Below, piece by piece: positions 1,021 through 39,465 of a DNA stretch of 46,447 nucleotides. A model generated the notes under the pieces. The model was not told the DNA's origin. It ran no database searches and saw only the letters and a list, made by a program, of their open reading frames with translations. Source of the stretch: Thiotrichaceae bacterium. GTDB taxonomy: Bacteria; Pseudomonadota; Gammaproteobacteria; Beggiatoales; Beggiatoaceae. The translations under genes were made by a program, and so were the position numbers. The stretch lies in contig JAABRD010000041.1 of the NCBI GenBank assembly GCA_011391085.1, forward strand, positions 1-46,447, written 5' to 3'. Within the stretch, counting starts at the first letter, position 1; each line of letters begins with the position of its first letter.

Positions 1021-4000
1021 TCACTTCTCTTGCCCTCTCACATACCCCCGTGCCGCCGCCTTCTCAAACCACTGTTTTGCCTCCTCCAGATTACGCGGAA
1101 CGCCTAGACCTCGACGATATAACTCACCTAAATTATATTGCGCCGGGGCATAACCTTGTTCTGCTGCCTTTCGCACTAAAATAACCGCCAGTTCCAAATC
1201 TTGAGGGACGTCATTACCTTCATAATATAGTCCTGCCAAGTTATTTTGGGCTTTGGCCAAACCTTGTTGGGCCGCTTTGCGAACCCAATAAACCGCTTGC
1301 TGTTTATCTTGCGGAAGACCTTTCCCTTCCCAATACAAACCGGCTAACGCATTTTGGGCACCGGCGAGACCTTGTTGGGCGGCTTTGCGAAACCACTCTG
1401 CCGCTTGGAAATAGTCACGTATTCCGCCGCGACCTTCGTAGTACATCCAACCTAATTGATATTGCGCCCGCGTCTCCCCCTGCTGGGCCGCTTGCAACAG
1501 CCAGTGAAGCGTTTTCTGATCGTCGTCACGATACCAATAGAAAGCCAACGCCAGTTGCGCTGACAAATCTCCTTTCGACGCGGCTGTTTCCAAGGTGGAA
1601 AACGATAAAGACAATTGCGTTCTAGGAAAACGAATAAACTCATTTACCGTTTGCCAATGGTGTTGGAAAACCGCGGCGGGGTCTTGGTCAACTAGGGAAA
1701 TATCTTGGATATTGTTATCCAAAAATTGATTATGCTTGAGGAGAATCTGACTGGATTGTTGCACCACCATTCCAATTTGTGCAAACTGAATCTGGTTGCC
1801 CGTTATCTCCACGTCGTCAACATTTGTCAAAGATAAACCATGATAGCCCGCTTCGATACGATTGTCACGAATCTGAATCTGTTTAGAAGCACGGATAGAT
1901 AAACCATTTTCAACCGCCGAATCGGCCACCTCATGGAGGAGATGCAGTCCCACAATGTCAATCTGTTCGGAATCGATAATGGTCAGCACCGTCTCCTTGG
2001 GGATGCGTGTGACGAGATGGGCATTGTCACCATAGATGGCAAGATGATGACGTCCAACCAAGTGAACGGTTTCATTATACGTGCCTGGGCACAACCACAG
2101 TACATCACCAGGTTGAGTGGCTACCCGCAACGCTTCATTGATGGTAGCGTACCTAGTTATCTGAGGTTCAGCTTTGGCAGAATATAGCAACACTTGTTGA
2201 GGAGAACAATGGGGTTGCACCAGCGGAAGCAGAAACTCTCTGAATTTCTCATCATACCACCTCCCTGTCTCCTCCATTTCCAGAAGAAATTCACCATCAT
2301 ATACTTCTAACAGACGTTGCAATCCCCGCACCCATTCCGAATACGTTTCGTCAAGTGTACGTCTTAGCCAAAAATTGACGGCGGTATGAACTTCATAAAG
2401 ATCATAACCGCGGTCCTCCAAAAATTGAAAATGCGCCGAGTAGTCACGAGTTTCATAACAACACGCCGGCAATGTGCGATTCTTCACCAATTCCCCATAC
2501 TGTTGTGCCTCCTGGGCTAGATAGTCAGGATGATCTTGAAAATACTGATGCACTTCATAAAACGTGCGGGCGAGTCTTCTCACATATTTTTCATACAGTG
2601 GTTGCGTTTGCGGTTGAAACTCCCGCTGTTGGGCCGCGGGAATCAGGTTATCTGCTAACCATTTCACAAATTCGATATGATAATGCCCAAAATCGTCTGT
2701 AGTGTTCAAATTCAGCGTTGTATACCGATGCGGACCGCTGACGAAAATAGGTGACTTGACGGCTTGTTGCAAAGTCGTGTAACTGAGGACATTTTGCAAG
2801 TGACAATAAAAACCGCGTACTCCTCTATCTGGCAGACGAGTTAAATCCGAAGGGCAGTTATCCGAAGAGGTATTGGCAAATAACGTGTCTAAACTTTGCC
2901 AAACTTGTTTGATAAGCCCATTCACATCCGGTTGACTGACAGTATCCACTTCACTATTGCCTTCCACGAAGCGTTGTTGTTTGACCGTTACCAATTGATC
3001 CGCAACCCGTTCTTTAACCGTCAACAGATAAACCCCAGCTTTGGAAAAATCCTGTAATTCCTGACGAATTAACAGCGGTTGGTCATTGACAAATTGATAG
3101 TGGTCGATTCCATAATTCAACTCACTGCCTTTCCAAGTTGAAATAATTTGTCTGTTCTCGGTATCTACAAAAGGAGAAGGAAGAGTGCCTAGAGACTTGT
3201 TTTCGACAAACATCTCCACACTGGGATCAAATAACCAGAAACGGTAATACGTGCTATCCGCAGTGGCAGAAGCAAAGATACGCAAGTCTTGATAACCATC
3301 AAAATTGACATCCTCGATCTTGACAGACTTATCTTTCTCATCACTCGGCATTTGAGAAGCAAGTTCCTGAAGAATTTGAAACGGCTTGGTGGTCTTCGCT
3401 TTATAAATGTTCAACTCTTTCAGAGTAGCCATTTTGTGTTTCACTGCACCAACCAGTTCAAAGGTGAAATCGGGCCAATCAGGACGAATCGAGACCGTCT
3501 CAGACCATAACACATTCGCCGTTGCGGAGGTACGGTTGTCCGGTTCCGTCGTGTCGTAAGAAAATTGATTGGCTTCAAAATCATTATTGGTGATTTCAAC
3601 ATCCTGAGAAGTAATAATCTTTCTGAAATAAGCATTTTTGTTATTCTTGACGGTGTTGTATTTAAAGAACACGTTATTGGAATGTTCCACATCTAAGATT
3701 CCATGTTTCGAACCTCCAGAATTGTCATTGTCAGTGATAGCGACCTCTTTGATGGTAACGTCAGCGGAATCTTTAATGTGAAACACACCTTCGGTATTCT
3801 TGACAGCCTTGCCACCCGTCACACTGACATGTTGGGAATTGTCGACAAACACCGCGTGCGTACCTGAACCGTTCAAAATGGTGTCGGTGATACTGATATT
3901 CTTAGCATTTTGTAACTTGAGGACGGTGCCTTCACAATAGCCACGTCTGACATCATGTATCAAACCCAGGTTGTGCAACGTAATGTCTTCCGAAGCCTGA

Positions 4001-4350
4001 ATCGTCAGAACCGCCACCCAGCCCTGTTTGGTTTTTAACCAAACATTGTCTTGACCTATCAAGGTAAGAGATTTTTTATTAGCAATCAGAAGGGCGGTAT
4101 GGTTATCGGTCGATTCTATCTCATAATCGCCAGATTTCAGAATGATGTAATCGCCCGTGTCAGCCTCGTTGATAACGGACTGTAACAAGTTCTGTTTGCC
4201 TGGTTGAACATAATGCACTTTATGGCTATCCACGCAATCTTCCTGAACTTTGATCGCGCCTTCCTGGCAGGCCGAAAAAACGGTGGTGTGGGCGCATAAT
4301 AAGACCCACAATGAGAAAAGGTGAGTAAGGGTAGAATGTGGTTTGAACAT
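1021..4350 (-). CDS. Large secreted protein: signal peptide, two right-handed parallel beta-helix (pectin-lyase/NosD-like) regions, C-terminal Sel1-type TPR repeats (~6)
   Basis: N-terminal MFKPHSTLTHLFSLWVLLCAHTTVFSA signal. Beta-helix rung motifs (NISITDTILNGSG, VTIKEVAITDN, IQIRDNRIEAG, VEITGNQIQ). C-terminal repeated AQxxLGxxYxxGxGVxxDxxxAxxWxxKAAxQG units (Sel1). Confidence 0.75.
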   Translation of the reverse strand: MFKPHSTLTHLFSLWVLLCAHTTVFSACQEGAIKVQEDCVDSHKVHYVQPGKQNLLQSVINEADTGDYIILKSGDYEIESTDNHTALLIANKKSLTLIGQDNVWLKTKQGWVAVLTIQASEDITLHNLGLIHDVRRGYCEGTVLKLQNAKNISITDTILNGSGTHAVFVDNSQHVSVTGGKAVKNTEGVFHIKDSADVTIKEVAITDNDNSGGSKHGILDVEHSNNVFFKYNTVKNNKNAYFRKIITSQDVEITNNDFEANQFSYDTTEPDNRTSATANVLWSETVSIRPDWPDFTFELVGAVKHKMATLKELNIYKAKTTKPFQILQELASQMPSDEKDKSVKIEDVNFDGYQDLRIFASATADSTYYRFWLFDPSVEMFVENKSLGTLPSPFVDTENRQIISTWKGSELNYGIDHYQFVNDQPLLIRQELQDFSKAGVYLLTVKERVADQLVTVKQQRFVEGNSEVDTVSQPDVNGLIKQVWQSLDTLFANTSSDNCPSDLTRLPDRGVRGFYCHLQNVLSYTTLQQAVKSPIFVSGPHRYTTLNLNTTDDFGHYHIEFVKWLADNLIPAAQQREFQPQTQPLYEKYVRRLARTFYEVHQYFQDHPDYLAQEAQQYGELVKNRTLPACCYETRDYSAHFQFLEDRGYDLYEVHTAVNFWLRRTLDETYSEWVRGLQRLLEVYDGEFLLEMEETGRWYDEKFREFLLPLVQPHCSPQQVLLYSAKAEPQITRYATINEALRVATQPGDVLWLCPGTYNETVHLVGRHHLAIYGDNAHLVTRIPKETVLTIIDSEQIDIVGLHLLHEVADSAVENGLSIRASKQIQIRDNRIEAGYHGLSLTNVDDVEITGNQIQFAQIGMVVQQSSQILLKHNQFLDNNIQDISLVDQDPAAVFQHHWQTVNEFIRFPRTQLSLSFSTLETAASKGDLSAQLALAFYWYRDDDQKTLHWLLQAAQQGETRAQYQLGWMYYEGRGGIRDYFQAAEWFRKAAQQGLAGAQNALAGLYWEGKGLPQDKQQAVYWVRKAAQQGLAKAQNNLAGLYYEGNDVPQDLELAVILVRKAAEQGYAPAQYNLGELYRRGLGVPRNLEEAKQWFEKAAARGYVRGQEK

Positions 4351-4483
4351 AGGAGTTTGTAGAAGATATGTTTAGTTTATGTTGGAGATGACAAATTATA
4401 TTTCATCTTTGGTTGTTGGTCAAGAGAGGTCTAGGGAGAAATTTTTTGGGTATGTTGAAATAGAGAGAATGATTAAACTTTCA

Positions 4484-4764
4484 GGACTTACGCAACCACT
4501 TTTGTAAGTCGTTGATTTGACACCCCCCCTATCCCCCCCCGCACGCGGCAATGCCATTAAGTTAAGGAACATTTCGGTGGAGTGGAGGCTTTAGCCGGTC
4601 GGCCGTAGGCATCACTCCTCACTCAAATTGCGGGGCGCCTACCGCTGGCCGGCTAAAGCCTCCACTCCACCGTACCCTAACTTAATGGCATTGCCCGCAC
4701 GCGGGGGGGAATCACTCCCTCCCCACGTGGGGGGAGGGTCGGGGTGGGGTGACTGCGTAAGTCC
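4484..4764. mobile_element. Composite/nested palindromic element (three concentric inverted-repeat pairs)
   Basis: Outer pair GGACTTACGC/GCGTAAGTCC (4484-4493/4755-4764). Middle pair GCACGCGGCAATGCCATTAAGTTAAGG/CCTAACTTAATGGCATTGCCCGCACGCGG (4541-/-4703). Inner family B variant GGAGTGGAGGCTTTAGCCGG/CCGGCTAAAGCCTCCACTCC (4579-4668). Confidence 0.7.
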
Positions 4765-5145
4765 TAACTTTGACAACTGTTGGGATGTGCAGATATGGCT
4801 TGCTAAAGTAGGATGGATAATGAAGGTAACAAAATGATTGACTGTCTATTGATCTTGGTTTATCTTGCCCATATACTCATCTTGTTGACCCAAGATGTCA
4901 GATTATGTGGTGTAAGTAAATTGAGGTAACTGCTGTGAAAATTATTTCTATTTTCTATTTTCAATAACCAATACGCGGGCGTAGGTTGCCATAATTCTTA
5001 TTGTGTTATAGTAGAAATAGTGCAAGTACGGGGGAATTTTACTATAATGTAGGACCAACTGAAAAGTCGGGTTTCCATCATCGCTATTTAGCAAAATGGT
5101 GGGCTACCTACCTAGACTGGCAGTTGTTTTATCGTTCAACCAATC

Positions 5146-5678
5146 ATGTCTATCAAGAAGGAGGTCATTATGATGACTATAAAATGGCAACAACCCAAAT
5201 CCGCTTTCCTATGGCAAAGCAGTTTTGTTTTTCCCTCTGCCGGTGGTGGAGGTGGCACTGATGAGGAAATAGTGACTTTAGAATACGATATTAGTCGTTA
5301 CGGTTCTGATTACTATTCTTTCACCCCTGCGCAAAGTGACCCTGAACGGTAGTGATGCAATCTGGGTGAAATGTCTGAACTCTGATTAGAATGATTTTCA
5401 GATGGACTCTGATTAGTCAAGCCTCCTTTCATAGCCCTCATTTAATCATCTCAATCAAAGTTCAAGACCGACGCGAAACCTCTCGATATTTCACCCACAT
5501 TGCATCACTACCCCCTGAACTATGTCGAGTTGCCTGTCAAAATGACTCCAGATGTAAAGCTTTCAGTTACGTCAAACCAGACGCAACATGGCCTGGTAGT
5601 CCTCCTGCTTGTTGGTTGAAAGAGGCAGTCCCACCAGCGGCAAGTAGTTCTTGCTGTGTGTCAGGAGTGAAAATGTAA
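5146..5678 (+). pseudogene. Small PAN/apple-domain protein gene interrupted by MITE insertion (MITE 5348-5512; TSD CCCTGAAC at 5340-5347 and 5513-5520)
   Basis: Removing the 165-bp MITE plus one TSD copy joins ...TPAQSDPE to LCRVACQNDSRCKAFSYVKPDATWPGSPPACWLKE... in frame (PAN-like Cys pattern). A strong RBS AAGGAGG lies 5 nt before ATG 5170. The upstream frame terminates at TAG, which lies inside the MITE TIR. Confidence 0.6.
5348..5512. mobile_element. MITE family A copy (single 81-bp core unit) inserted in coding sequence
   Basis: TIRs GGTAGTGATGCAATCTGGGTGA / TCACCCACATTGCATCACTACC. Exact 8-bp direct repeat CCCTGAAC on both flanks. Confidence 0.85.
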
Positions 5679-5784
5679 ATTTGTGTAGAATACGTCCCTC
5701 GTCACCCTTTCGCACTTCCAATGCCAATAGTGCGTGGGACGCACCCTACAATCCACATTCCCAAAATCAGGACTGATAGGACTG

Positions 5785-5940
5785 GAGATATAGTAATATT
5801 CGTTCAAATCTGTACGATTCCCGCCGGAGCGCAATAAGAATTATTGCGCTGTGCGCCCGCGTAGCGGCAGCGCGATACCGCGCAATAATTCTTATTGCGT
5901 TCCAGCGGAGGTGTACAAATTTATAGGAATATTACTATAA
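5785..5940. repeat. Palindromic repeat family C (TIR ..TATAGTAATATTC / GAATATTACTATA..) with GC-rich internal dyad
   Basis: Inverted termini at 5785-5802 and 5922-5940. Internal GCGCAATAAGAATTATTGCGC-type dyads. Related copies at 29845-29955 and a partial copy at 38207-38311. Confidence 0.6.
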
Positions 5941-6037
5941 TATTAAAGGAGTCCAAAGCGTGGCTTTGTATCGACAAAGCTACACTTTGGACACATGGAG
6001 ACTTTGTACAATCATTTCTAAACAGAAGTAAACTATT

Positions 6038-9000
6038 ATGACATTACCTACTTTCTTTCGTACCAGCGTAGGCGGAATAAGTTGTTTCCTGCTATTCGCC
6101 CAACTTACCTTTGCCGCTTCACCGCCACCCAATGACCATTTGAGTGAGGCGACGGCGATTCTCGGTTTGCCTTACACTTCCACACCTCAAAATGTCGCCG
6201 CGGCTACTTTGGAACCCAACGAATCTATACGAAGTTGTACTAGTACAGCCAGCAATGACAGTGTGTGGTATCAATACACACCTACCACAAACCAAGAAGT
6301 TGCCTTTAACACTTTCGGTTCCAATTATGACACCGTCTTATCGGTGTGGACTGGCACAACTCATCCGCTAGTCGAACTGGGTTGCAATGATGACACCAGT
6401 GGAAATTATCAGTCCTTCGTGCATTTATTTTTAAGCACAGGAACGACCTACTACATTAACATCGCCAGCTTTTCTGGTATGACTGATGAGAATAGTTCAC
6501 TCGTCTTAACTGTCAACCTTCTCCTGCCAGCGGACAATGACAATTTAGCCAACGCCATTCAGGTCGCGACTCTACCTTATACTTCCGCCAACCCGTACCT
6601 TTGGCAAAGCCAAACCCTGGAAACTAGCGAAACCCCTCCCAGTTGTGCCCTAAATGGATATGCGAGTGTGTGGTATCAATATACACCAACTATCAACCAA
6701 ACCGTTTCATTTGCCGCAGATGCGCCGGTATTATCGATTTGGAATGGCACCACGCATCCACTGACTGAAATCACCTGTAACAACAGCATGGCTTCGGGTT
6801 CCCCTTCTTTTCCCTTAGACTTGATAGCAGGCACCACCTATTATGTCAATCTGGGAATCCCAGATTCATCAGCAGGCACAAGGACGTTAAACATCAGTGA
6901 GTTGACGCAAGCTGGCAATGACGATTGGGCCAATGCCACCCTTATCACCACGCTTCCCTACGAAGGAAAGCAACAGGCGCAATGGGCCAGTGCCGAAGAA
7001 CAGGAAGTCACCTCGAGTTGTGAGTGGGAAGAACAGCAAAGTAGTGTTTGGTATCAATACACACCAACCACCGACCAGATGATAAGTTTAGAAGGGACGA
7101 CGTTGGAGGAGACGGTGTGGTCGTACCCTACTAAGGAGATGACAGTCTCTGTCTGGAATGGCACAGGTCACCCGTTGACTGAATTGAATTGCGAACGTTT
7201 TGGGAGTGGTGACAACACTCCTTTCCTGTTGAGGCTGACCGCCGGAACAACTTATTCTTTCAAGGTCACTACCCAGCCTTCAGGGGTTCTTGATTTTGTG
7301 TTATCGGTTTCCCCAGTTACGCCACCAACGAATGATAATTTGGCCACTGCCACCGTCATTCCTACCTTACCCTATAGCAATACCTCTCAAGAAGTTTTCG
7401 GAAGTACCAACGAAGACCAGGAACTGTCTAGTGGTTGCGGAGAAAGCGGCGGTAGTGTGTGGTATCAATATACACCGACTCAAAATCAAACCGTGGTGCT
7501 TAGTGGTCTGTCAGAGTGGTCTGTGACAGTATCGGTATGGACCGGCACCACTCACCCTTTGACAGAACTGACTTGCCTGGGTTCCGGGAATCTGTTGAAA
7601 CTCACCGCAGGTACCACTTACTTTATCAAAGTGAGTGTCCCGTCTAATCAGAAATCGTTGGTCTCCTTTGAAGCCACCGAGGTGACTCCACCTAGCAATG
7701 ATGATTTGGCCAATGCCACCGTCATTTCTACATTACCCTATAGCAATACCTCTCAAGAAGTTTTCGGAAGTACCAACGAAGACCAGGAACTGTCTAGTGG
7801 TTGCGGAGAAAGCGGCGGTAGTGTGTGGTATCAATATACACCGACTCAAAATCAAACCGTGGTGCTTAGTGGTCTGTCAGAGTGGTCTGTGACAGTATCG
7901 GTATGGACCGGCACCACTCACCCTTTGACAGAACTGACTTGCCTGGGTTCCGGGGTTCTGTTGAAACTCACCGCAGGTACCACTTACTTTATCAAAGTGA
8001 GTGTCCCGTCTAATCAGAAATCGTTGGTTTCCTTTGAAGCTACCGAGGTGACTCTCCCTAGCAATGATGATTTGGTCAATGCAACCGTCATTCCTACATT
8101 GCCTTATGGTCATTCTCAAAGTACCCAATGGGCGACGGCAGAACTGGGCGAAGTTAGCTATGAACAAGCAACCTCTGAAAGTTGTGGAGGAAGTTGGGGA
8201 TGGGCATACTTTGAAGACAGTGTTTGGTATCAATACACGCCAGACCATGACCAACTGGTGGAATTTGACACTTTGGGTTCTAGTTATAACACGGTTCTCT
8301 CTATTTGGACAGGCACTGCCCACCCACTGACGGCCTTGGTGTGTAATGATGACGAATATGGCGTCTTCCTTTCCCAAGCCAACTTGAAACTGACCGCGCA
8401 CACCACCTATTATATCAGGGTGAATAGTGGCGCGTCGTGGAATGGCAGTGACATCGGCGGTATGTTAAATTTCTACGCCCAGGAAGTCTTGCCACCTAGC
8501 AACGATAACTTGGCCCAAGCCATTTCTATCACGTCCTTGCCTTATATCCATCGGCAAAACACCCAAGGGGCTAGTTTGGAAACCGAGGAGATGACAGCCA
8601 GTTGTGCGAAGTCGGAGACGGGAATGAGTGTGTGGTACAAATACACGCCTACCACTTCTGAAACGGTGCGGCTAGATACACAAACTTCCAGTTACGACAC
8701 GGTGTTATCGGTGTGGACTGGCCAACCGTTGACCGAAATCGCTTGTCATGAGGATTTGAGTGCCACTGATTCACAATCTAAACTCATCGTGACTTTGACG
8801 GCTGGCACCACTTACTTGATGAATGTCAGTGGGACTCGAAATGATTACTATCTGCCTATTTCTTCTGGTAACTTGGTGTTAACCGTTACAGCCAATGACC
8901 TTGAGTTAACGTCCCTGGGTCTCGCCAACATGATAGATGCACTGGGAAACCCGGTGACCTCCTCCACAGAATTTCTGGGCGGCATGTCAGTCAATGGCAA

Positions 9001-9385
9001 TGCTTACCAAGTGGAGGTGGTGCAAAATCTCGCTGATGAAGTAGAGATTTGGGGTAAAATGACAGTGGACCCTAACCATGTTGGCCAAACTGCCGACGTG
9101 GTCGTGTATGCGAGTTATCAATCGTCCACGTTGGCTTCTGAAGAATATTTCTACATGGTCGATAACCGCTATTCCATTTATGTTTGGGACCAGAACCCAG
9201 CGAATTTAATGGCCCTGCAAACGGTTCGGTTAGCACCAGAACAATGGCAAGCCCTTTATCGCGGACGTTTCCAAGTGCCTGGCGTGTTAAACATCTTCTG
9301 GGGGTATCGTCTGGCAGATGGGACAGTGGTGACCAGTGGTCAAGGATTGCAGGTGATGATTCATCGGCAGGTGAGTCAGTATTAA
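6038..9385 (+). CDS. Secreted protein with 8 tandem PPC (bacterial pre-peptidase C-terminal)-like domains and a C-terminal ~110-aa domain shared with two other proteins in the window
   Basis: Signal peptide. ~120-aa modules repeat the motifs NDNLANA..LPY, SVWYQYTPT, DTVLSVWTG..HPL.EL.CNDD, AGTTYY. C-terminal tail ...VDPNHVGQTADVVVYA...IFWGYRLADGTVVTSG. Confidence 0.85.
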   Translation: MTLPTFFRTSVGGISCFLLFAQLTFAASPPPNDHLSEATAILGLPYTSTPQNVAAATLEPNESIRSCTSTASNDSVWYQYTPTTNQEVAFNTFGSNYDTVLSVWTGTTHPLVELGCNDDTSGNYQSFVHLFLSTGTTYYINIASFSGMTDENSSLVLTVNLLLPADNDNLANAIQVATLPYTSANPYLWQSQTLETSETPPSCALNGYASVWYQYTPTINQTVSFAADAPVLSIWNGTTHPLTEITCNNSMASGSPSFPLDLIAGTTYYVNLGIPDSSAGTRTLNISELTQAGNDDWANATLITTLPYEGKQQAQWASAEEQEVTSSCEWEEQQSSVWYQYTPTTDQMISLEGTTLEETVWSYPTKEMTVSVWNGTGHPLTELNCERFGSGDNTPFLLRLTAGTTYSFKVTTQPSGVLDFVLSVSPVTPPTNDNLATATVIPTLPYSNTSQEVFGSTNEDQELSSGCGESGGSVWYQYTPTQNQTVVLSGLSEWSVTVSVWTGTTHPLTELTCLGSGNLLKLTAGTTYFIKVSVPSNQKSLVSFEATEVTPPSNDDLANATVISTLPYSNTSQEVFGSTNEDQELSSGCGESGGSVWYQYTPTQNQTVVLSGLSEWSVTVSVWTGTTHPLTELTCLGSGVLLKLTAGTTYFIKVSVPSNQKSLVSFEATEVTLPSNDDLVNATVIPTLPYGHSQSTQWATAELGEVSYEQATSESCGGSWGWAYFEDSVWYQYTPDHDQLVEFDTLGSSYNTVLSIWTGTAHPLTALVCNDDEYGVFLSQANLKLTAHTTYYIRVNSGASWNGSDIGGMLNFYAQEVLPPSNDNLAQAISITSLPYIHRQNTQGASLETEEMTASCAKSETGMSVWYKYTPTTSETVRLDTQTSSYDTVLSVWTGQPLTEIACHEDLSATDSQSKLIVTLTAGTTYLMNVSGTRNDYYLPISSGNLVLTVTANDLELTSLGLANMIDALGNPVTSSTEFLGGMSVNGNAYQVEVVQNLADEVEIWGKMTVDPNHVGQTADVVVYASYQSSTLASEEYFYMVDNRYSIYVWDQNPANLMALQTVRLAPEQWQALYRGRFQVPGVLNIFWGYRLADGTVVTSGQGLQVMIHRQVSQY

Positions 9386-9448
9386 AGAATGGTAGAATGG
9401 TAGGGTGGGCAACAGGTTTATCGTGGCCTACCCATTCCAGGTATGAAT

Positions 9449-9478
9449 GGTAGGCAAACAAGAGGAGGTTTGCCTACC
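9449..9478 (+). terminator. Putative hairpin terminator after 6038..9385 (GGTAGGCAAAC-loop-GTTTGCCTACC)
   Basis: 11-bp perfect stem 64 nt after the stop codon, preceded by a second imperfect hairpin at 9399-9434. The trailing U-tract is weak. Confidence 0.35.
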
Positions 9479-9934
9479 CTACAGGGCTATTTGAAGATTT
9501 ATTTATAGATGACCCATGTAAATATGTTCATTTGATGTTTAAAACATGTTGGGTGCCTTGCATTAATTCCAATCCACGGGCTAATTGTAGATTCTTCGTT
9601 GCACACCAAATTCGATGTATTTGAATGGAGGGTAAACATAAAGGGCATTTGCCCACGCTACAGGACTGGATGGTCTTTTATAACCGCCTCGTAGAGTGTA
9701 CATACCAAACAACATACCCATATGAAAAAATCATCTTTGCACATGGCTATATTCCTCAAAAAAAGTGACTGGGTTAAGATAACAAAATTCACAGTTATTT
9801 TACCAGGAAATGCTGCCATGGGCATCTCTTTTCACACACTAAAATAGGAGTCCAAAGCGTAGCTTTGTCTGGGGCACGCACAAAGCTACGCTTTGGGCTG
9901 GCGATTACTTATCATTTTTTTTGGAGATTATTTT

Positions 9935-11332
9935 ATGAATTTACATATTTCTTTGCGTACCGTATGTTTATCGGTTTTCCTGACTACTCTTCCCGCTTGT
10001 GGAGGAGGTGAGGAAGTGGTTGAGGAAATTGTCAATAGCATTGTTAACAACACCATTTCCAACGTCCTCCTTGGTGAGGAAGTGATTGAAATTAATTTGC
10101 CGGTCACCACCCTTTCTACTGAAGGTGGACGCACCTTTTATTTGGAAGAGGCAGTGGGCAGTGGTGCCTTTCATTATCGTGAGGATGCTAACGATGAGTT
10201 TTATACAGTCACGGACCGCGGACCTATGGTCAATTGTGTGGACAGCCCCGACCTTCTTGGGATTGTCAACCCATGTCGGTTAACAAACAACGTTGCCGAT
10301 GAGAATGGTAAAATCTCCCTGCTTTCGGATTTCGTCCCAACCATCTACAAACTCAATGTCGATACCAGTGGTTTGATTGGTGCTAAAGTGGGTTTTAGAA
10401 TGATTGAAACTATCCCTTTAAAGGACCGCGATGGTAACAATCTTCATGGTCTGCCTCCCTCTTTTCGTTCTGCGACAACTGACAATGTATATGATCGACA
10501 AAGCCACAAACTGGCCTCCGATCCAAATGGTCTTGACCCCGAAGCCTTGATTAAATTGACAGATGGCACATTTTGGATTGCCGAAGAATATGGTCCCAGT
10601 TTGATACATCTGGCAGAGAATGGCAGAGTGTTAGAACGGGTAGTACCTTATGATCTGGAAATGGATTTATCAAATGCGAATTACCAGGTCACGGCTGGCT
10701 TGCCAGGGATTCTCAAGAAGCGGCAAGATGGACGCGGGGTCGAGGGGCTGGCGGTCAGTACGGATGAACACTATTTGTATTTTATCCTCCAAGCACCGTT
10801 GGCGAATCCCAATGACTCCGCCAAAAAGTCTCGTTACTTGCGCTTGTTCAAAGTCAATCTCAGAAGTGGTAACTTCAATGGAATCGCGGGTGAATATGTG
10901 TATGTTTTGGATCAAGCGGCGACTTTTACGGCTGATGACACGGCGTTACAAAGTGATGTCAATGTCAGTGAACTGGTGGCTTTAGACACTGACCGACTGT
11001 TGGTGGTAGAACATGTCAGAAGACATACCAAAATTTACCAAGTTCCACGTCTGCAAGGGGGTACTAACATATTTGGAAGTCATTGGGATGATGAAGGAAC
11101 TTATCCGTCGTTGGAAACGTCCTCTAATTTGGTGACTCAAGGAGTCATGGCCTTGGATAAGAAGCTGGTCTTCAATTCTCCCGACGACCTGCCCACGTTG
11201 GATGCAAACATTGAAGGGCTGGCCATTTTGAGTAATGAATTTGTGGCTTTCCTCAATGACAATGAGTTTAGTATCAAAGGTGAGAAGACGCGGGTGACAA
11301 TTCGGAGGATGACAGATATGTTGAATCGTTGA
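9935..11332 (+). CDS. Secreted/lipoprotein-like protein; possibly the phytase-like esterase (beta-propeller) family, function uncertain
   Basis: GGAG RBS 7 nt upstream of ATG 9935. N-terminal hydrophobic leader ending LTTLPAC|GGG (lipobox-like). There is no strong family motif; the family assignment is tentative. Confidence 0.65.
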   Translation: MNLHISLRTVCLSVFLTTLPACGGGEEVVEEIVNSIVNNTISNVLLGEEVIEINLPVTTLSTEGGRTFYLEEAVGSGAFHYREDANDEFYTVTDRGPMVNCVDSPDLLGIVNPCRLTNNVADENGKISLLSDFVPTIYKLNVDTSGLIGAKVGFRMIETIPLKDRDGNNLHGLPPSFRSATTDNVYDRQSHKLASDPNGLDPEALIKLTDGTFWIAEEYGPSLIHLAENGRVLERVVPYDLEMDLSNANYQVTAGLPGILKKRQDGRGVEGLAVSTDEHYLYFILQAPLANPNDSAKKSRYLRLFKVNLRSGNFNGIAGEYVYVLDQAATFTADDTALQSDVNVSELVALDTDRLLVVEHVRRHTKIYQVPRLQGGTNIFGSHWDDEGTYPSLETSSNLVTQGVMALDKKLVFNSPDDLPTLDANIEGLAILSNEFVAFLNDNEFSIKGEKTRVTIRRMTDMLNR

Positions 11333-11383
11333 GTGAGGTTGGTAGCCCGATGATCCGTCCTGCAACTGCCGCGGGATTAGAGG

Positions 11384-11575
11384 CCATTAAGTTAAGGAAT
11401 TGAGGTGACGAAACAATTAACATAGCGGTGGACTAGAGGCTTTAGCCGGTGAGGGGCATTGCGATTTCAATTATGTTCTGCCCCCCTCCGGCTAAAGCCT
11501 CTAGTCCACCTGTCGATTAATTTTAGGGGCTTTTTTTCTCAACTTAATGGCATTGCGGCTGAAGCCTCTAGTCCA
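11384..11575. mobile_element. Composite MITE family B (outer CCATTAAGTTAAGG/CTTAATGGCATTGC arms enclosing a GGACTAGAGGCTTTAGCCGG inverted pair at 11430-11507)
   Basis: Same architecture recurs at 32670-32860 and (as a variant) at 4541-4703. Lies between convergent genes 9935..11332 and 11612..12346. Confidence 0.75.
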
Positions 11576-11611
11576 ACCGGACCTGGCTAAAGAAAAACTT
11601 GAACATCGAAT

Positions 11612-12346
11612 TTACATAAAGACCTGTTCCAACCATTTTTTAAATCCTTTTATCTCCTCTGATTCCAAGTCTATCAAGGGAGATGGAAGTTGTGTCGATG
11701 GTAAAGGAGACCGCGACGCTTTAGGAAACAAATTAGCAAAAGACTGTCCCGGTGGGTTCTGCCAGGCCAACCAAGTATAAACCCCAGCCTTGGTTTGATG
11801 AAAGTCACTGAATAATTTTAACTCCTTGGGTAACTGATTGACACACTCGGTTGCATGTTCTAACAGTCTTTGTGGCTTCCCCTGACAAACCGCCGATTTA
11901 ATGAAGTCTTCTAACATGCCATCTCCTCTATGGTCAGGCATAATCCATAAACCGACTGGCGGGAGTCCACAATCATGTTGAAAAATATTTCCAACATAGG
12001 CTTGGTCAGGAGGAAGATTGATAATATAGTCCCTGTCCTGCTTTTGTAAAATATCTGTGACCGTTTTCCAACGTGCCGCAAACCCGCCATTGAGATTGGT
12101 ATAATCAGCATCAACCACAATGCCCAGTCGGTTGCGCGGATCGTCTCTAAGTCCCCTGAGTAAGACGGGCAATCTGCGAAGAACTCCCTTAATACCATCC
12201 TCATGCCCACCACACTCGGTTGGAGTTAACACCGGAATGTTAGGTTCGGGAAGTAACTGATTCAGCAAAATTTTGAAAAATTCCACATCGCGACCTCCTT
12301 CCACCAGCAGACGGACTTCTTTTTTGGGATTGTTTGTCTGTTTCAT
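11612..12346 (-). CDS. TOPRIM-like small protein (DUF4435/RloB-like); partner of upstream ABC ATPase; candidate antiphage effector
   Basis: N-terminal RLLVEGGRDVEFF (TOPRIM Glu) and GIVVDADYTN (DxD). The start ATG directly abuts the ATPase stop (TGAATG on the minus strand). Confidence 0.7.
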   Translation of the reverse strand: MKQTNNPKKEVRLLVEGGRDVEFFKILLNQLLPEPNIPVLTPTECGGHEDGIKGVLRRLPVLLRGLRDDPRNRLGIVVDADYTNLNGGFAARWKTVTDILQKQDRDYIINLPPDQAYVGNIFQHDCGLPPVGLWIMPDHRGDGMLEDFIKSAVCQGKPQRLLEHATECVNQLPKELKLFSDFHQTKAGVYTWLAWQNPPGQSFANLFPKASRSPLPSTQLPSPLIDLESEEIKGFKKWLEQVFM

Positions 12347-13510
12347 TCACCGTACCCCCAACTTATCTTGCGTGACTATTTGCAAGTCTTGTTTATCATA
12401 AATTGTAGCAATGACCTGACCCTTATTGGTAGTCCTGATACTACGGCCCAATCGGAAGAGAATAGTCTCCACTTCACTCTCTTCAGACACCCGCTGAAAA
12501 GCATCGATACAATCGTCGCTATGGGTGGTGGCAAAGACTTGAATGTTAAATTGCTTGGCCAGCGTGAAAATCAGTTCCCAAATGAGTGGCTGAATCTCGT
12601 AATGTAAACCATTTTCAAATTCGTCTATGAGTAGCAAACGACCTTTGGCTTTGATCAGATAGAGAAGCAATTGCAAAACTCGGCGCATACCATCTCCATA
12701 ACTCTTGAGTGGTTCAAGCTGTTCTTGCCCATTTCGTTTCACAAATGGTTTCCGTTCTCCTTCCAGATCACCGGTCACTTTCTTAAATGTCAGTCCTTCT
12801 ACACCGGGGTCAATCAGTTTGAGTCCGTCAATCACATATTGACCATACGTTAGATAAACGTCATCCCAAATATCGGCCAGTCGACGAGTCGGAATGAAAT
12901 CCACCGGCACGTAGTAATTGGAGAAATCCAAACCGATTTTTTGGAGTTCAAATTGACCGACTTTATAGTTGTCACGGTCATACGATTGAAAATCCAGCCA
13001 CACTTGCAAAACCCCTTGCAATTTGAGTCTGGAACGAATGGCTGGTAATTCTAATTGACGTTTTTTGCTACTGATTTTCAGGGCCTGGCGCACTCCTTCA
13101 AAAGAAGTCAATTCAGTTGGATCCAGTTCAGTTCTGACCCGGCGCCGAAAGAAGCCACCTTCCTGATCTTGTTCACTGTTTCCCAAAGTGAAATAGACCG
13201 ATTTGAGACTGACATATTCCGTTTGTTCTGAATTACCAATATAAATACTTTCCCCAGAGTCAGGAAAAGTACGATTTGTAAAGAAATTTTCAACTGCTAA
13301 AATCCCTTCACCAGTTTCGATTTCATCATGTTCTTTGAGAAGAGTTTCCAGCAAGAGGGGGGAACCTAAAGATTCATAAATTCGTAGGGCTTCCAAGACG
13401 CTACTTTTACCGGCATTGTTTTTGCCTACAATGAGATTGATTCGTCCTAGCTGTGGGATTTCGAGATCTTTTAGCAGACGAAAATTTTGGATTTTAAGGT
13501 TGGTTAGCAT
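12347..13510 (-). CDS. ABC/SMC-like ATPase (AAA_21/AAA_15 type); PARIS AriA-/AbiLi-/OLD-ATPase-like
   Basis: N-terminal LKIQNFRLLKDLEI..LIVGKNNAGKSSVLEAL (Walker A). Signature-like SYGDGMRR. Walker B LLLIDEFENGLH. H-loop ATTHS. Confidence 0.8.
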   Translation of the reverse strand: MLTNLKIQNFRLLKDLEIPQLGRINLIVGKNNAGKSSVLEALRIYESLGSPLLLETLLKEHDEIETGEGILAVENFFTNRTFPDSGESIYIGNSEQTEYVSLKSVYFTLGNSEQDQEGGFFRRRVRTELDPTELTSFEGVRQALKISSKKRQLELPAIRSRLKLQGVLQVWLDFQSYDRDNYKVGQFELQKIGLDFSNYYVPVDFIPTRRLADIWDDVYLTYGQYVIDGLKLIDPGVEGLTFKKVTGDLEGERKPFVKRNGQEQLEPLKSYGDGMRRVLQLLLYLIKAKGRLLLIDEFENGLHYEIQPLIWELIFTLAKQFNIQVFATTHSDDCIDAFQRVSEESEVETILFRLGRSIRTTNKGQVIATIYDKQDLQIVTQDKLGVR

Positions 13511-13522
13511 ATTGGAATTTTT

Positions 13523-14010
13523 AGTAGTGATGCAATCTGGGTGTACTGTCTGAACTCTGATTAGAATGATTTTCAGATGGACTCTGATTAGTCAAGCCTC
13601 CTTTCATGGCTATCATTTAATCATCTCAATCAGAACTCTGATTAGAATGATTTTCAGATGGACTCTGATTCGTCAAGCCTCCTTTCATAGCCCTCATTTA
13701 ATCATCTCAATCTGAACTCTGATTAGAATGATTTTCAGATGGACTCTGATTCGTCAAGCCTCCTTTCATAGCCTTCATTTAATCATCTCAATCTGAACTC
13801 TGATTAGAATGATTTTCAGATGGACTCTGATTAGTCAAGCCTCCTTTCATGGCTATCATTTAATCATCTCAATCTGAACTCTGATTAGAATGATTTTCAG
13901 ATGGACTCTGATTTGTCAAGCCTCCTTTCATAGCCCTCATTTAATCATCTCAATCAGAGTTCAAGACCAAGAGAAACCGCACGATATTTCACCCAGATTG
14001 CATCACTACC
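13523..14010. mobile_element. MITE family A copy with 5x tandem expansion of the 81-bp internal unit; 8-bp TSD GAATTTTT (13515-13522 / 14011-14018)
   Basis: TIRs (A)GTAGTGATGCAATCTGGGTG / CACCCAGATTGCATCACTACC. The internal unit GAACTCTGATTAGAATGATTTTCAGATGGACTCTGATTNGTCAAGCCTCCTTTCAT..CATCTCAATC repeats 5 times. Its left end lies 13 bp upstream of the ATPase start codon. Confidence 0.85.
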
Positions 14011-14156
14011 GAATTTTTGTTGTTATGGAAGTTAAAAACATAAGTAGTCAAGGTGCCGCCTGTCTCCTCTCTCCCTCTGGGAGAGGGGCCGGGGGGAGGG
14101 CCCGGTACTTAGTATTCTACCAAAATTAATTTAAGTCAATACTTAATTGAAATTCT

Positions 14157-14319
14157 GGTAGTGATGCAATGTGGGTGATATGTTTACCCTCACCCCCGGC
14201 CCCTCTCCCAGAGGGCGTGGGGAGAAAACCACTGGTGCCGCCGTTCCCCCCACGCCCTCTGGGAGAGGGGCCGGGGGTGAGGGAAACTCTATGAATATCA
14301 CCCAGATTGCATTACTACC
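14157..14319. mobile_element. MITE family A copy (GC-rich palindromic core variant); TSD GAAATTCT
   Basis: TIRs GGTAGTGATGCAATGTGGGTGA / TCACCCAGATTGCATTACTACC. Core CCCTCACCCCCGGCCCCTCTCC....GGAGAGGGGCCGGGGGTGAGGG. Exact 8-bp flanking repeat at 14149-14156 and 14320-14327. A core fragment also occurs at 14057-14100. Confidence 0.85.
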
Positions 14320-14468
14320 GAAATTCTGTGTATAAGGGGACAAATAAGACGATTTAAAATGTCATGGTCGGAGAGTCGCGCTGCCCGATCACTCCATAAC
14401 CCTCTCTTGAAACGGGTGGGGGAAGTGTTGGGACTGGCGGTCATTAAAAGACTGCCAGTCCTGCCTCA

Positions 14469-20093: not shown

Positions 20094-20148
20094 GGTAGTG
20101 ATGCAATCTGGGTGATATGTTTACCCTCACCCAGATTACATCACTACC
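20094..20148. mobile_element. Minimal MITE family A copy (TIRs only, 55 bp)
   Basis: GGTAGTGATGCAATCTGGGTGATATGTTTACCCTCACCCAGATTACATCACTACC, located 43 bp upstream of the giant adhesin start codon. No TSD recognised. Confidence 0.7.
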
Positions 20149-24732: not shown

Positions 24733-24863
24733 TTAATAAAAACATCACATCACTCCTTTTACGGATTTATGACGTGCAATAAGCTACCCTTATAAGATAG
24801 TTCCGCACCCCAGACTTTTCAAGAGGGCGCTTTTATTTTTTTCTATCCAAAATGTTATTTGTC

Positions 24864-27056
24864 ATGAGTCATAAGAAAAAATCCCCAGCCGCAGACCCCT
24901 TTGCACAGCGCGAGGCGCAAAAATACGATAATCCTATTTCTAGTAGAGAATTTATCATGCTACAGCTTGACGCTGTTGGCAAACCCATGAATTTTCAAGG
25001 CCTAGCCAAAGCTTTAAATATCCAAGGCGCCAAAGATTCAGAAGCCTTACGCCGTCGTTTGGCGGCAATGGAACGGGATGGCCAGTTAGTACGCAATCGC
25101 CGTAATCAATACGGACTCGCCAAAAAAATGGACTTAGTCCGCGGACGCATTATCGCCCATCCCAGTGGCTATGGCTTCCTCGTTCCCGACGAGGGCACAG
25201 GCGACCTCTTCCTCTCCGAAAAAGAAATGCGTAGCCTCATGCACGGCGACCGCGTTCTGGTCAACCTCCTTGGCATCGACCATCGGGGCCGCCGAGAAGG
25301 GGCCCTGGTGGAAGTCTTAGAACGCAACACGCATCAAATCGTAGGACGCTTCAACTACCGCAAAAGTCAAGGCATCTCTTTTGTCAAATCGGATAATGCT
25401 AGAATCCGTCACACCATTCTCGTCGACAATAAGAAACGACATCACGCCAGAGATGGTCAAATGGTCGTGGTCAAAATTGTCGAACATCCAACCCCCTACA
25501 ATCCCCCCGTGGGCGAAATCATTGAAGTTCTCGGCGACTACCGGGCCCCTGGGATGGAAATCGACATTGCCATTCGTAGCCACGATTTACCTCATCAATG
25601 GGAACCTGAAGTCTTAGCGGAAACTACCCAATTTGCTGAAAAAATTCCCAAATCTCTCCTCCAAGGACGCGAAGACCTTCGTCATCTCCCCTTTGTCACC
25701 ATCGATGGCGAAGACGCCCATGACTTTGACGATGCCGTTTATTGCGAACCCAAAGGCAAAGGATGGCTCCTCCGCGTCGCCATTGCCGACGTCTCGGCCT
25801 ATGTCAAACCCGATTCTGCGATCGATGTAGAAGCGAAAAAACGTGGTAACTCCGTCTATTTTCCGGCGCGGATGATACCGATGTTACCAGAAATTCTCGC
25901 TACCAAACTTTGTTCTCTCCAACCCCAGGTGGACCGCCTCTGCCTCGTCTGCGAACTCTCTATCGATTTCTACGGTAGAACCAGACGCATTCACTACTCG
26001 GAAGCCACTATTCGATCCGCGGCCCGCCTCACTTACACCGAAGTTGCCGACGTCCTGGCCGGCCATGAACAAAATTTCCGTTCCCCCGACCTCCTCCCCT
26101 GTATTCGCCATCTCTACAACCTCTATCAACTCCTCCTCAAACGTCGCAAAAAACGCGGCGCCATTGATTTTGAAACGGTTGAAACACGCATTATTTTCAA
26201 TGACCAACAAAAAATTGAAAAAATCGTCCCCGTGCATCGCAATGACGCCCATAAACTGATTGAAGAAATGATGTTAGCTGCCAACGTTGCCACCGCCGAA
26301 TGGCTAACCGCGAAAGAGATGCTACTATTATATCGTGTTCACGACGGCCCGAAACCCGATAAACTCCCCGATTTACGCGCTTTTCTCGCCCAACTCGGTC
26401 TCAACCTGGGAAGAAAAGAACAACCCGAAGCCAAACACTATGCCAAGGTGGTTGAAAAAATTCAAGAACGTCCCGACGCCCGCATGATTCAAACCGTCCT
26501 ACTTAGGAGTCTCCAACTGGCTATTTATAGTCCTGAGAAAAAAGGCCACTTCGGTTTGTCCTATCCCATTTACACCCACTTCACTTCTCCGATTCGGCGC
26601 TACCCTGACCTCCTGGTACATCGTGCCATTCGCCACTGTTTACGGAATCTGCCACCCGAACAGTTTGCCTATTCTTACCACGATATGCAGCAACTGGGAG
26701 AACAATGTTCCATGACGGAACGCCGGGCCGACGAAGCTACCCGCGACGCCGTGGGCTGGCTGAAATGCGAATTTATGCAAGACAAAGTGGGACAACACTT
26801 TGAAGGCACCGTCACCGCAGTCACCTCCTTTGGCCTGTTTGTAGAACTTGACGGCATCTTTGTCGAAGGTCTCATTCACGTTGCTACCTTACGAAATGAT
26901 TACTATCATTTTGACCCCGTGAATCAACGACTTCAGGGGGAACACACTGGTATGGCTTACCGCCTTTCAGACCGCGTCCAAGTCAAAGTCATGGCAGTTC
27001 ATCTGGAAGAAAAGAAGATTGATTTTGAACTGGTTGGGAATCCTAAACCAGGATAG
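24864..27056 (+). CDS. rnr: Ribonuclease R (RNase II family 3'-5' exoribonuclease; CSD - RNB - S1)
   Basis: The N-terminus ...DPFAQREAQKYDNPISSREFI matches E. coli RNase R (DPFQEREAEKYANPIPSREFI). RNB motifs LPFVTIDGEDAHDFDDAV, HFGLSYPIYTHFTSPIRRYPDL. C-terminal S1 domain. Confidence 0.93.
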   Translation: MSHKKKSPAADPFAQREAQKYDNPISSREFIMLQLDAVGKPMNFQGLAKALNIQGAKDSEALRRRLAAMERDGQLVRNRRNQYGLAKKMDLVRGRIIAHPSGYGFLVPDEGTGDLFLSEKEMRSLMHGDRVLVNLLGIDHRGRREGALVEVLERNTHQIVGRFNYRKSQGISFVKSDNARIRHTILVDNKKRHHARDGQMVVVKIVEHPTPYNPPVGEIIEVLGDYRAPGMEIDIAIRSHDLPHQWEPEVLAETTQFAEKIPKSLLQGREDLRHLPFVTIDGEDAHDFDDAVYCEPKGKGWLLRVAIADVSAYVKPDSAIDVEAKKRGNSVYFPARMIPMLPEILATKLCSLQPQVDRLCLVCELSIDFYGRTRRIHYSEATIRSAARLTYTEVADVLAGHEQNFRSPDLLPCIRHLYNLYQLLLKRRKKRGAIDFETVETRIIFNDQQKIEKIVPVHRNDAHKLIEEMMLAANVATAEWLTAKEMLLLYRVHDGPKPDKLPDLRAFLAQLGLNLGRKEQPEAKHYAKVVEKIQERPDARMIQTVLLRSLQLAIYSPEKKGHFGLSYPIYTHFTSPIRRYPDLLVHRAIRHCLRNLPPEQFAYSYHDMQQLGEQCSMTERRADEATRDAVGWLKCEFMQDKVGQHFEGTVTAVTSFGLFVELDGIFVEGLIHVATLRNDYYHFDPVNQRLQGEHTGMAYRLSDRVQVKVMAVHLEEKKIDFELVGNPKPG

Positions 27057-27080: not shown

Positions 27081-27206
27081 TAGGGTGGATTAAGCGAAGC
27101 GTATCCACCTACGGGTCTTAATCCACCCTACTCAAATGGTGGATACGCTTCGCTTAATCCACCCTACTCAAATGGTGGATACGCTTCGCTTAATCCACCC
27201 TACTCA
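27081..27206. repeat. Palindrome plus 2x tandem 36-bp repeat (AATGGTGGATACGCTTCGCTTAATCCACCCTACTCA) immediately upstream of the vault-protein gene
   Basis: An inverted copy (TAGGGTGGATTAAGCGAAGCGTATCCACC) is followed by two direct 36-bp units. This creates a spurious in-frame N-terminal extension (MVDTLRLIHPTQ x2) of the following ORF. Confidence 0.8.
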
Positions 27207-27228
27207 CTATTATTCACCATTCACCAAT

Positions 27229-39300: not shown

Positions 39301-39465
39301 GGTAGTGATGCAATGTGGGTTCTTTGTCTGAACTCTGATTAGAATGATTTTCAGATGGACTCTGATTAGTCATAGCCTCCTTTCATGGCCATCATTTAAT
39401 CATCTCAATCAGAGTTCAAGACTAAGAGAAACCGCACGATATTTCACCCAGATTGCATCACTACC
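39301..39465. mobile_element. MITE family A copy (81-bp core type); TSD GATTATTG
   Basis: TIRs GGTAGTGATGCAATGTGGGTTC / TCACCCAGATTGCATCACTACC. Exact 8-bp repeat at 39293-39300 and 39466-39473. Located between divergent genes. Confidence 0.85.

Follow-up and report, generated by a model that had tools for sequence, protein, structure and literature searches.

A two-gene ABC ATPase and DUF3226 Toprim locus of a Thiotrichaceae bacterium, assigned by sequence to the candidate defence family PDC-M38

A 46,447-nucleotide stretch of DNA from a Thiotrichaceae bacterium (assembly GCA_011391085.1, contig JAABRD010000041.1; hereafter the window, meaning the whole stretch analysed) holds two adjacent genes, one for an ATPase of the ATP-binding cassette (ABC) type and one for a small Toprim-like protein, and this raises the question of whether the two form an antiphage system and to which of the known ATPase-Toprim systems they are related. 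The original prediction, made from the letters of the sequence, had proposed a candidate antiphage system of the PARIS, AbiL or split-OLD type, possibly a distinct or compact variant, within a defence islet bounded by repeats. Sequence comparisons place the pair in PDC-M38, a candidate family outside PARIS and AbiL.

The gene pair and its family

The upstream gene (gene A, 12347..13510, minus strand) is an open reading frame (ORF) of 387 amino acids encoding an ABC ATPase of the Rad50/SMC/OLD-like kind, and the downstream gene (gene B, 11612..12346, minus strand) is an ORF of 244 amino acids for a DUF3226 protein, a predicted metal-dependent nuclease effector. Gene A ends in TGA, and the ATG of gene B follows without a gap (TGAATG, 12344..12349; minus-strand sequence across the junction GGTGAATGAAA), which suggests translational coupling, and the spacing is likewise tight or overlapping in the 74 related loci analysed. 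Gene A is intact and carries all catalytic ABC motifs, namely Walker A GKNNAGKSS (13400-13426), the signature-like SYGDGMRR (12680-12703), Walker B LLLIDEFENGLH (12602-12637) and the H-loop TTHS (12518-12529), each on the minus strand. On the same strand, gene B contains LLVEGGRD with E16 and D20 (12287-12310), VVDAD with D79 and D81 (12104-12118), MPD..GMLED with E146 (11906-11941) and K186..WLAWQ196 (11759-11791). Both predicted ORFs, with their coordinates, lengths and strand, the junction and every motif that had been quoted were found again when the coordinates were checked.

To judge by profile hidden Markov model E-values, both genes are real, far beyond chance. Gene A matched the PADLOC PDC-M38A model PDLC04611 with an E-value of 1.8e-110 and 368 bits (protein 1-387, model 1-383 of 383), and gene B matched the PDC-M38B model PDLC04623 with an E-value of 5.8e-58 (protein 12-243, model 5-218 of 219). 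In Pfam, gene A matched AAA_15 (6e-28) and AAA_21 (5e-23), and gene B matched DUF3226 (PF11536) with an E-value of 5e-45 and 154.3 bits against a cutoff of 27 (profile 3-207 of 208). A search of NCBIfam with both proteins returned nothing above the cutoffs (e.g. RecF, 39 bits against 172), an exact-sequence lookup of the window protein found no record, and a single-protein sequence search of the PDB gave noise only. With the same gene order, strand and adjacency, both models matched end to end and no structural difference, the locus agreed with PDC-M38 in all sequence comparisons and is assigned to this family. PDC systems are 145 experimentally untested candidates proposed by "guilt-by-embedding", and PDC-M38 is listed in the supplementary cassette table of the same study (Payne et al., bioRxiv 10.1101/2024.01.29.577857). 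Thus the idea of a candidate antiphage system is borne out to the extent that the pair is catalogued as a defence candidate and embedded in BREX loci in several genomes.

The pair resembles PARIS in that both are two-gene systems in which a stand-alone Toprim protein comes after an ABC ATPase, share an N-terminal LLVEGxxD with the catalytic Glu (E26 of AriB, E16 of gene B) and can occur inside restriction or BREX loci. The effectors differ, AriB being a DUF4435 Toprim protein and gene B a DUF3226 protein: DUF4435 (PF14491) reached only 12.7 bits on gene B against a Pfam cutoff of 27 (E 0.1), so that DUF4435/RloB was ruled out and the earlier label of a DUF4435/RloB-like protein was wrong. In PADLOC the AriB model matched gene B marginally (E 0.017), gene A gave a weaker match to AriA (1.6e-27), and GajA models reached only 1e-14. 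The likeness to AbiL lies in the two-gene operon and in a full-length match of gene A to the AbiLi model PDLC02336 (1-340 of 340, E 2.1e-50), whereas the PDC-M38A model outscores AbiLi on gene A by about 200 bits and no AbiLii model is among the five PADLOC matches of gene B at E <= 1. On these grounds, an AriB match of E 0.017 and no match to AbiLii, the locus is therefore a member of neither PARIS nor AbiL, and both assignments were rejected. Of the type first proposed, the ATPase-Toprim architecture stands, with AriB as the top Foldseek match and the best match of the family profile in the PDB, while membership of PARIS or AbiL fails on the effector models; the guess of a distinct or compact variant was right.

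Toprim fold and active site of gene B

Gene B was modelled with confidence by AlphaFold2 (predicted local distance difference test 92.4, predicted template modelling score 0.90). In fold comparisons the model ranked first with PH0156 of Pyrococcus horikoshii (PDB 2p62; 10.9), an uncharacterised archaeal protein from structural genomics with 14% identity to gene B, followed by the C-terminal region of class 2 OLD (6nk8; 9.2), class 1 OLD of Thermus scotoductus (6p74; 9.0, 21% identity), Retron Ec67 (8.3) and GajA (7.5), with AriB in eighth place (6.5). PH0156 did not match the DUF3226 family sequence profile at E <= 10. From the model and its fold matches, gene B is classed as a stand-alone OLD-type Toprim protein and a predicted nuclease. 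Together with the conserved Glu and DxD, these results support the earlier view that a separately encoded Toprim protein lies beside the ABC ATPase.

In OLD nucleases metal A is bound by a Glu on strand 1 and a DxD motif, and metal B by an acidic residue at Glu+4 and an (S/T)xE motif, with a Lys or Arg completing the site (PMC7049728). By alignment gene B retains the metal-A ligands (E16 and D79-x-D81) and the acidic residue at Glu+4 (D20), a further likeness to OLD. In an alignment of 63 homologues, E16 and D79 are kept in all 63 sequences, D20 in 59 with Glu in three more, and D81 in 57 with Asn in the rest. E16 aligns with E26 of AriB, whose E26A mutant lost tRNA cleavage (PMC12409363). Within the MPD..GMLED motif, E146 comes after strand 4 and is invariant, and K186 is kept in 62 of the 63 homologues. 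The C-terminal half with its WLAWQxxPG motif is specific to DUF3226, which sets gene B apart from OLD, and its residues Q196 and W238 are invariant.

For gene A the fold comparisons gave 17.7 with Rad50, 16.9 with SMC, 16.6 with the ATPases of Retron Ec83/Eco7, 16.4 with PtuA, 15.5 with AriA, 13.9 with the OLD protein of Retron Eco8, 13.5 with GajA and 12.5 with Ts OLD. By these values gene A is a conflict-system-type ABC ATPase that lacks a long coiled coil. It stands no nearer to AriA than to Rad50, SMC or PtuA, and this too speaks against PARIS membership.

Distribution of the pair and its probable function

A scan of one genome per species yielded more than 541 confirmed DUF3226 loci, patchily spread through bacteria and archaea, with hosts that include Thiomargarita, Parabeggiatoa, methanotrophs, cyanobacteria, Chloroflexota, Bacteroidales and Methanosarcinales. 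Pairing was counted in the best 80 of these loci. In 77 of them the DUF3226 gene has a homologue of the window ATPase beside it in the same orientation; in the three loci without a paired ATPase the match begins less than 160 nt from a contig end. The ATPase lies upstream of the DUF3226 gene in all paired loci except one, where it lies downstream, and the bit scores of the gene A and gene B homologues correlate over the loci (Spearman 0.70-0.73). Searched with the family profile, 1.84 billion cluster representatives yielded 5,617 members of the DUF3226 family, 3,189 of them at E <= 1e-10. The best 150 of the 5,617 representatives are all stand-alone proteins of 163-254 amino acids and none is fused; the split architecture is therefore the stable state of the family, in contrast to OLD and GajA, in which the ATPase and the Toprim domain are fused.

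The contexts of the pair are diverse. The 133 nearest flanking genes of the 74 loci match 142 Pfam families, each found in at most four genes, which rules out conserved housekeeping synteny. In three loci the pair lies directly between the BREX genes pglX and pglZ and in four others it has one BREX flank, so that 7 of the 74 loci are BREX-flanked. In four Methylococcaceae/Methylobacter loci (positions ~4160-8000) it is inserted co-directionally into a histidine biosynthesis operon, the genes on either side being identified as hisG and hisD from the size of their clusters and the length of their proteins, and in three other loci it adjoins purD. Furthermore, the pair was found on ten plasmids, some of them small and with the pair beside BrnT/BrnA, and on the 6.4-kb ColE10/MOBQ Citrobacter plasmid NZ_CP055541.1 it is essentially the sole cargo (508-2354), with the two genes overlapping by 4 nt. 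Thus the two genes are nearly always adjacent and co-oriented, co-diverge and travel together between unrelated contexts.

Additional genes were observed near the pair in some of these genomes. On NZ_CP055541.1 a 193-amino-acid gene annotated as "tRNA modification GTPase" (2429-3010) immediately precedes the pair in the same orientation; it is possibly a third component or possibly a misannotation. In Thiomargarita (CCYTUG010000194.1, 471-2673) a second ATPase pair, composed of a 504-amino-acid AAA_15/AAA_21 ATPase and a 227-amino-acid protein without a Pfam match, is located 6 kb upstream of the PDC-M38 pair, and the same 61-kb contig is reported to encode two more paralogous ATPases (P0251 and P0253) that are 44-45% identical to the window ATPase. 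In Hymenobacter sediminis (8654-14053) the pair is followed by a gene for a 1645-amino-acid DUF3686/DUF7902/AAA protein and a DUF559 (Vsr-like) gene, a region that may be another conflict-system neighbourhood.

By analogy with characterised systems, the pair is probably a self-contained two-gene conflict module in which a sensor ATPase and a Toprim nuclease act in abortive-infection defence. As in PARIS and OLD, an oligomer of the ATPase would hold or license the nuclease; the ATPase would serve as the sensor of infection, possibly by recognising anti-restriction or anti-BREX proteins, and the nuclease so activated would cleave nucleic acid by two-metal catalysis, leading to a growth arrest that aborts the infection. 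AriB cleaves tRNA, and P2 Old is reported to do so as well; the OLD proteins Ts OLD and Bp OLD, and GajA, cut DNA in vitro. The target of the pair could be of either kind. In PARIS, AriB is kept sequestered by a hexamer of AriA until the latter senses Ocr, a step that depends on ATP; AriB is then set free, forms a dimer and cuts tRNA-Lys (PMC11464382). Within the sensor-plus-nuclease model we have no strong preference between such a release and a stable complex.

Several observations weigh against this proposal. BREX flanks occur in only about 9% of the related loci, and among ten neighbouring window proteins that were scanned no other defence gene was detected. A tblastn search of 50,697 phage records gave no match to the family, PHROGs contains no matching family and the family is present in just 5 of 2.9 million viral contigs, which also leaves a phage origin of the pair unsupported. 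PARIS, by contrast, is often phage-borne. In the library of papers searched there was no text mention of DUF3226 or PDC-M38, the family being a bioinformatic candidate, and HEC-01, a related ATPase plus TOPRIM candidate, gave no defence in the one published assay. On the side of the effector, AriB is the top Foldseek match of gene B with a template modelling score of only 0.3, and the sequence similarity of the two is restricted to the first ~50 residues, as in the search of PDB sequences with the family profile, where AriB was the sole near-significant match (residues 1-54 only, E 0.002). E146 and K186 could plausibly serve as the other metal-B ligand (Glu) and as the basic residue of the site, and this assignment is a guess. 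Finally, expression of the window copy is uncertain, because the end of a miniature inverted-repeat transposable element (MITE) lies 13 nt upstream of the gene A ATG (13511-13543), a place taken by an AGGA ribosome-binding site in the relatives from Thiomargarita and Parabeggiatoa, and each 81-nt unit of this element holds a promoter-like TTGACn-N18-AATCAT on the minus strand, facing the operon. No obvious Shine-Dalgarno sequence is left upstream of gene A in the window copy.

A stable, OLD- or Gabija-like DNA nuclease that happens to be split in two chains, and that acts directly on invading or damaged DNA by nicking or degrading it, with neither release nor a tRNA target, would also accord with the Toprim fold, and we regard it as unlikely. 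The stand-alone state of the best representatives argues for a separable effector; moreover, P2 Old is itself reported to cut tRNA anticodon arms (PMC12445682), so that, as far as this source goes, likeness to the OLD fold does not imply a DNA target. Gabija further differs in that its ATPase and Toprim are fused, and no GajB or UvrD-like helicase is found among the window neighbours. The pair might instead be a toxin-antitoxin-like addiction module that stabilises mobile DNA, the ATPase restraining a toxic nuclease that is freed when the element is lost. Its place as sole cargo of the 6.4-kb mobilizable plasmid, its company of BrnT/BrnA on other small plasmids and its sporadic insertion into housekeeping operons such as hisG-hisD would suit such a role; yet the pair is mostly chromosomal, with 10 plasmid records beside more than 541 genome loci, its embedding between pglX and pglZ points to immunity, and the PARIS effector on its own has only mild toxicity and in this differs from a classic toxin (PMC11464382), so that we hold addiction to be improbable. 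Least credible by far is a housekeeping ATPase of DNA repair or recombination (RecF/SbcC/Rad50-like) with an accessory nuclease, a reading that the original prediction had named as its own possible refutation. It is rejected in view of the diverse neighbours, which show no conserved synteny, the patchy distribution over bacteria and archaea, the carriage on plasmids, the NCBIfam scores far under their cutoffs, and a gene A that lacks a coiled coil and has no Mre11/SbcD partner present. The sensor-plus-nuclease module thus remains the explanation that we favour.

The window around the pair and the meaning of the family

The repeats that had been noted on both sides of the pair exist. Upstream of gene A, a MITE (13524..14009) is built of five 81-nt units in tandem, enclosed by perfect terminal inverted repeats of 20 nt (GTAGTGATGCAATCTGGGTG), and the repeat search found a second, shorter copy with the same termini at 14158-14318; downstream of gene B lies a composite palindromic repeat element (~11383-11575) with the inverted repeats I2, I8 and I16. 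We treat these elements as context and not as part of the system. In the 46-kb window the GTAGTGATGCAATCTGGGTG family is represented by 18 termini against 0 expected, with other copies at 607-867, 5349-5511, 20095-20147, 31681-31832, 36263-36419 and 39302-39464. The core of the palindromic family, TGGACTAGAGGCTTTAGCCG, was matched 13 times in the window (0 expected), in several intergenic regions (908-1012, 4578-4669, 11429-11575, 32716-32794 and 33406-33468). Both families fill most of the window's intergenic regions longer than ~250 nt, and both were looked for in 86 related loci and found in none. The flanks of the pair share no homology with those of its closest relatives, including the Thiomargarita one whose ATPase is 83% identical.

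The immediate neighbours are a phytase-like protein of 479 amino acids and a Calx-beta/cadherin protein of 1860 amino acids, in agreement with the unrelated secreted-protein genes described earlier, and other neighbouring genes encode a hybrid kinase, two-component and hydrolase proteins, RNase R (24852-27056) and the like. With such secreted or adhesin-like, two-component and RNase R neighbours, a defence island in the window was rejected, and the supposed MITE-bounded defence islet does not hold, as both repeat families are window-wide background absent from the related loci and no other defence gene was found among the ten neighbouring proteins scanned. The G+C content across the pair (0.445-0.449) lies within the range of the window (0.39-0.53), with no marked compositional anomaly, and a terminator scan gave three sites against 2.7 expected, nothing above chance.

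Two other features of the window were observed. In and beside the second MITE copy, G+C-rich, near-perfect hairpins formed by CCCTCTGGGAGAGGGGCCGGGGG and its complement (14052-14095 and 14184-14286; 43-nt arms, 95% complementary) yield the spurious ORFs 14143-14343 and 14171-14335. In addition, directly downstream of RNase R on what looks like a bacterial contig of the Thiomargarita/Beggiatoaceae type, a 901-amino-acid ORF (27136-29841, plus strand) has the full architecture of the Major Vault Protein, with matches to Vault repeats (5.6e-69), Vault_2/3/4 and MVP_shoulder (1.2e-51). Full-length homologues of this protein are unusual in bacteria.

The locus alone adds little, being one more copy of a family catalogued in PADLOC as a defence candidate, and it will not surprise a specialist; its value is that of a pointer to a large family (5,617 representative clusters) in bacteria and archaea, with a confidently modelled Toprim, an intact active site and no literature mention found. 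The DUF3226 family overall is a reasonable target for experimental testing, and its enterobacterial plasmid copies are directly testable in E. coli. More tentatively, DUF3226 pairs could represent a distinct branch of ATPase-Toprim immunity (>5,600 clusters at 50% identity); their preferred embedding between pglX and pglZ suggests that they could guard BREX by sensing anti-BREX proteins, and the WLAWQxxPG module could confer a target unlike those of AriB and OLD. If the defence function is true, the family would be a new effector family for ATPase-Toprim immune systems such as PARIS, OLD and Gabija, and it would help to settle whether tRNA or DNA is the general target of such Toprims.

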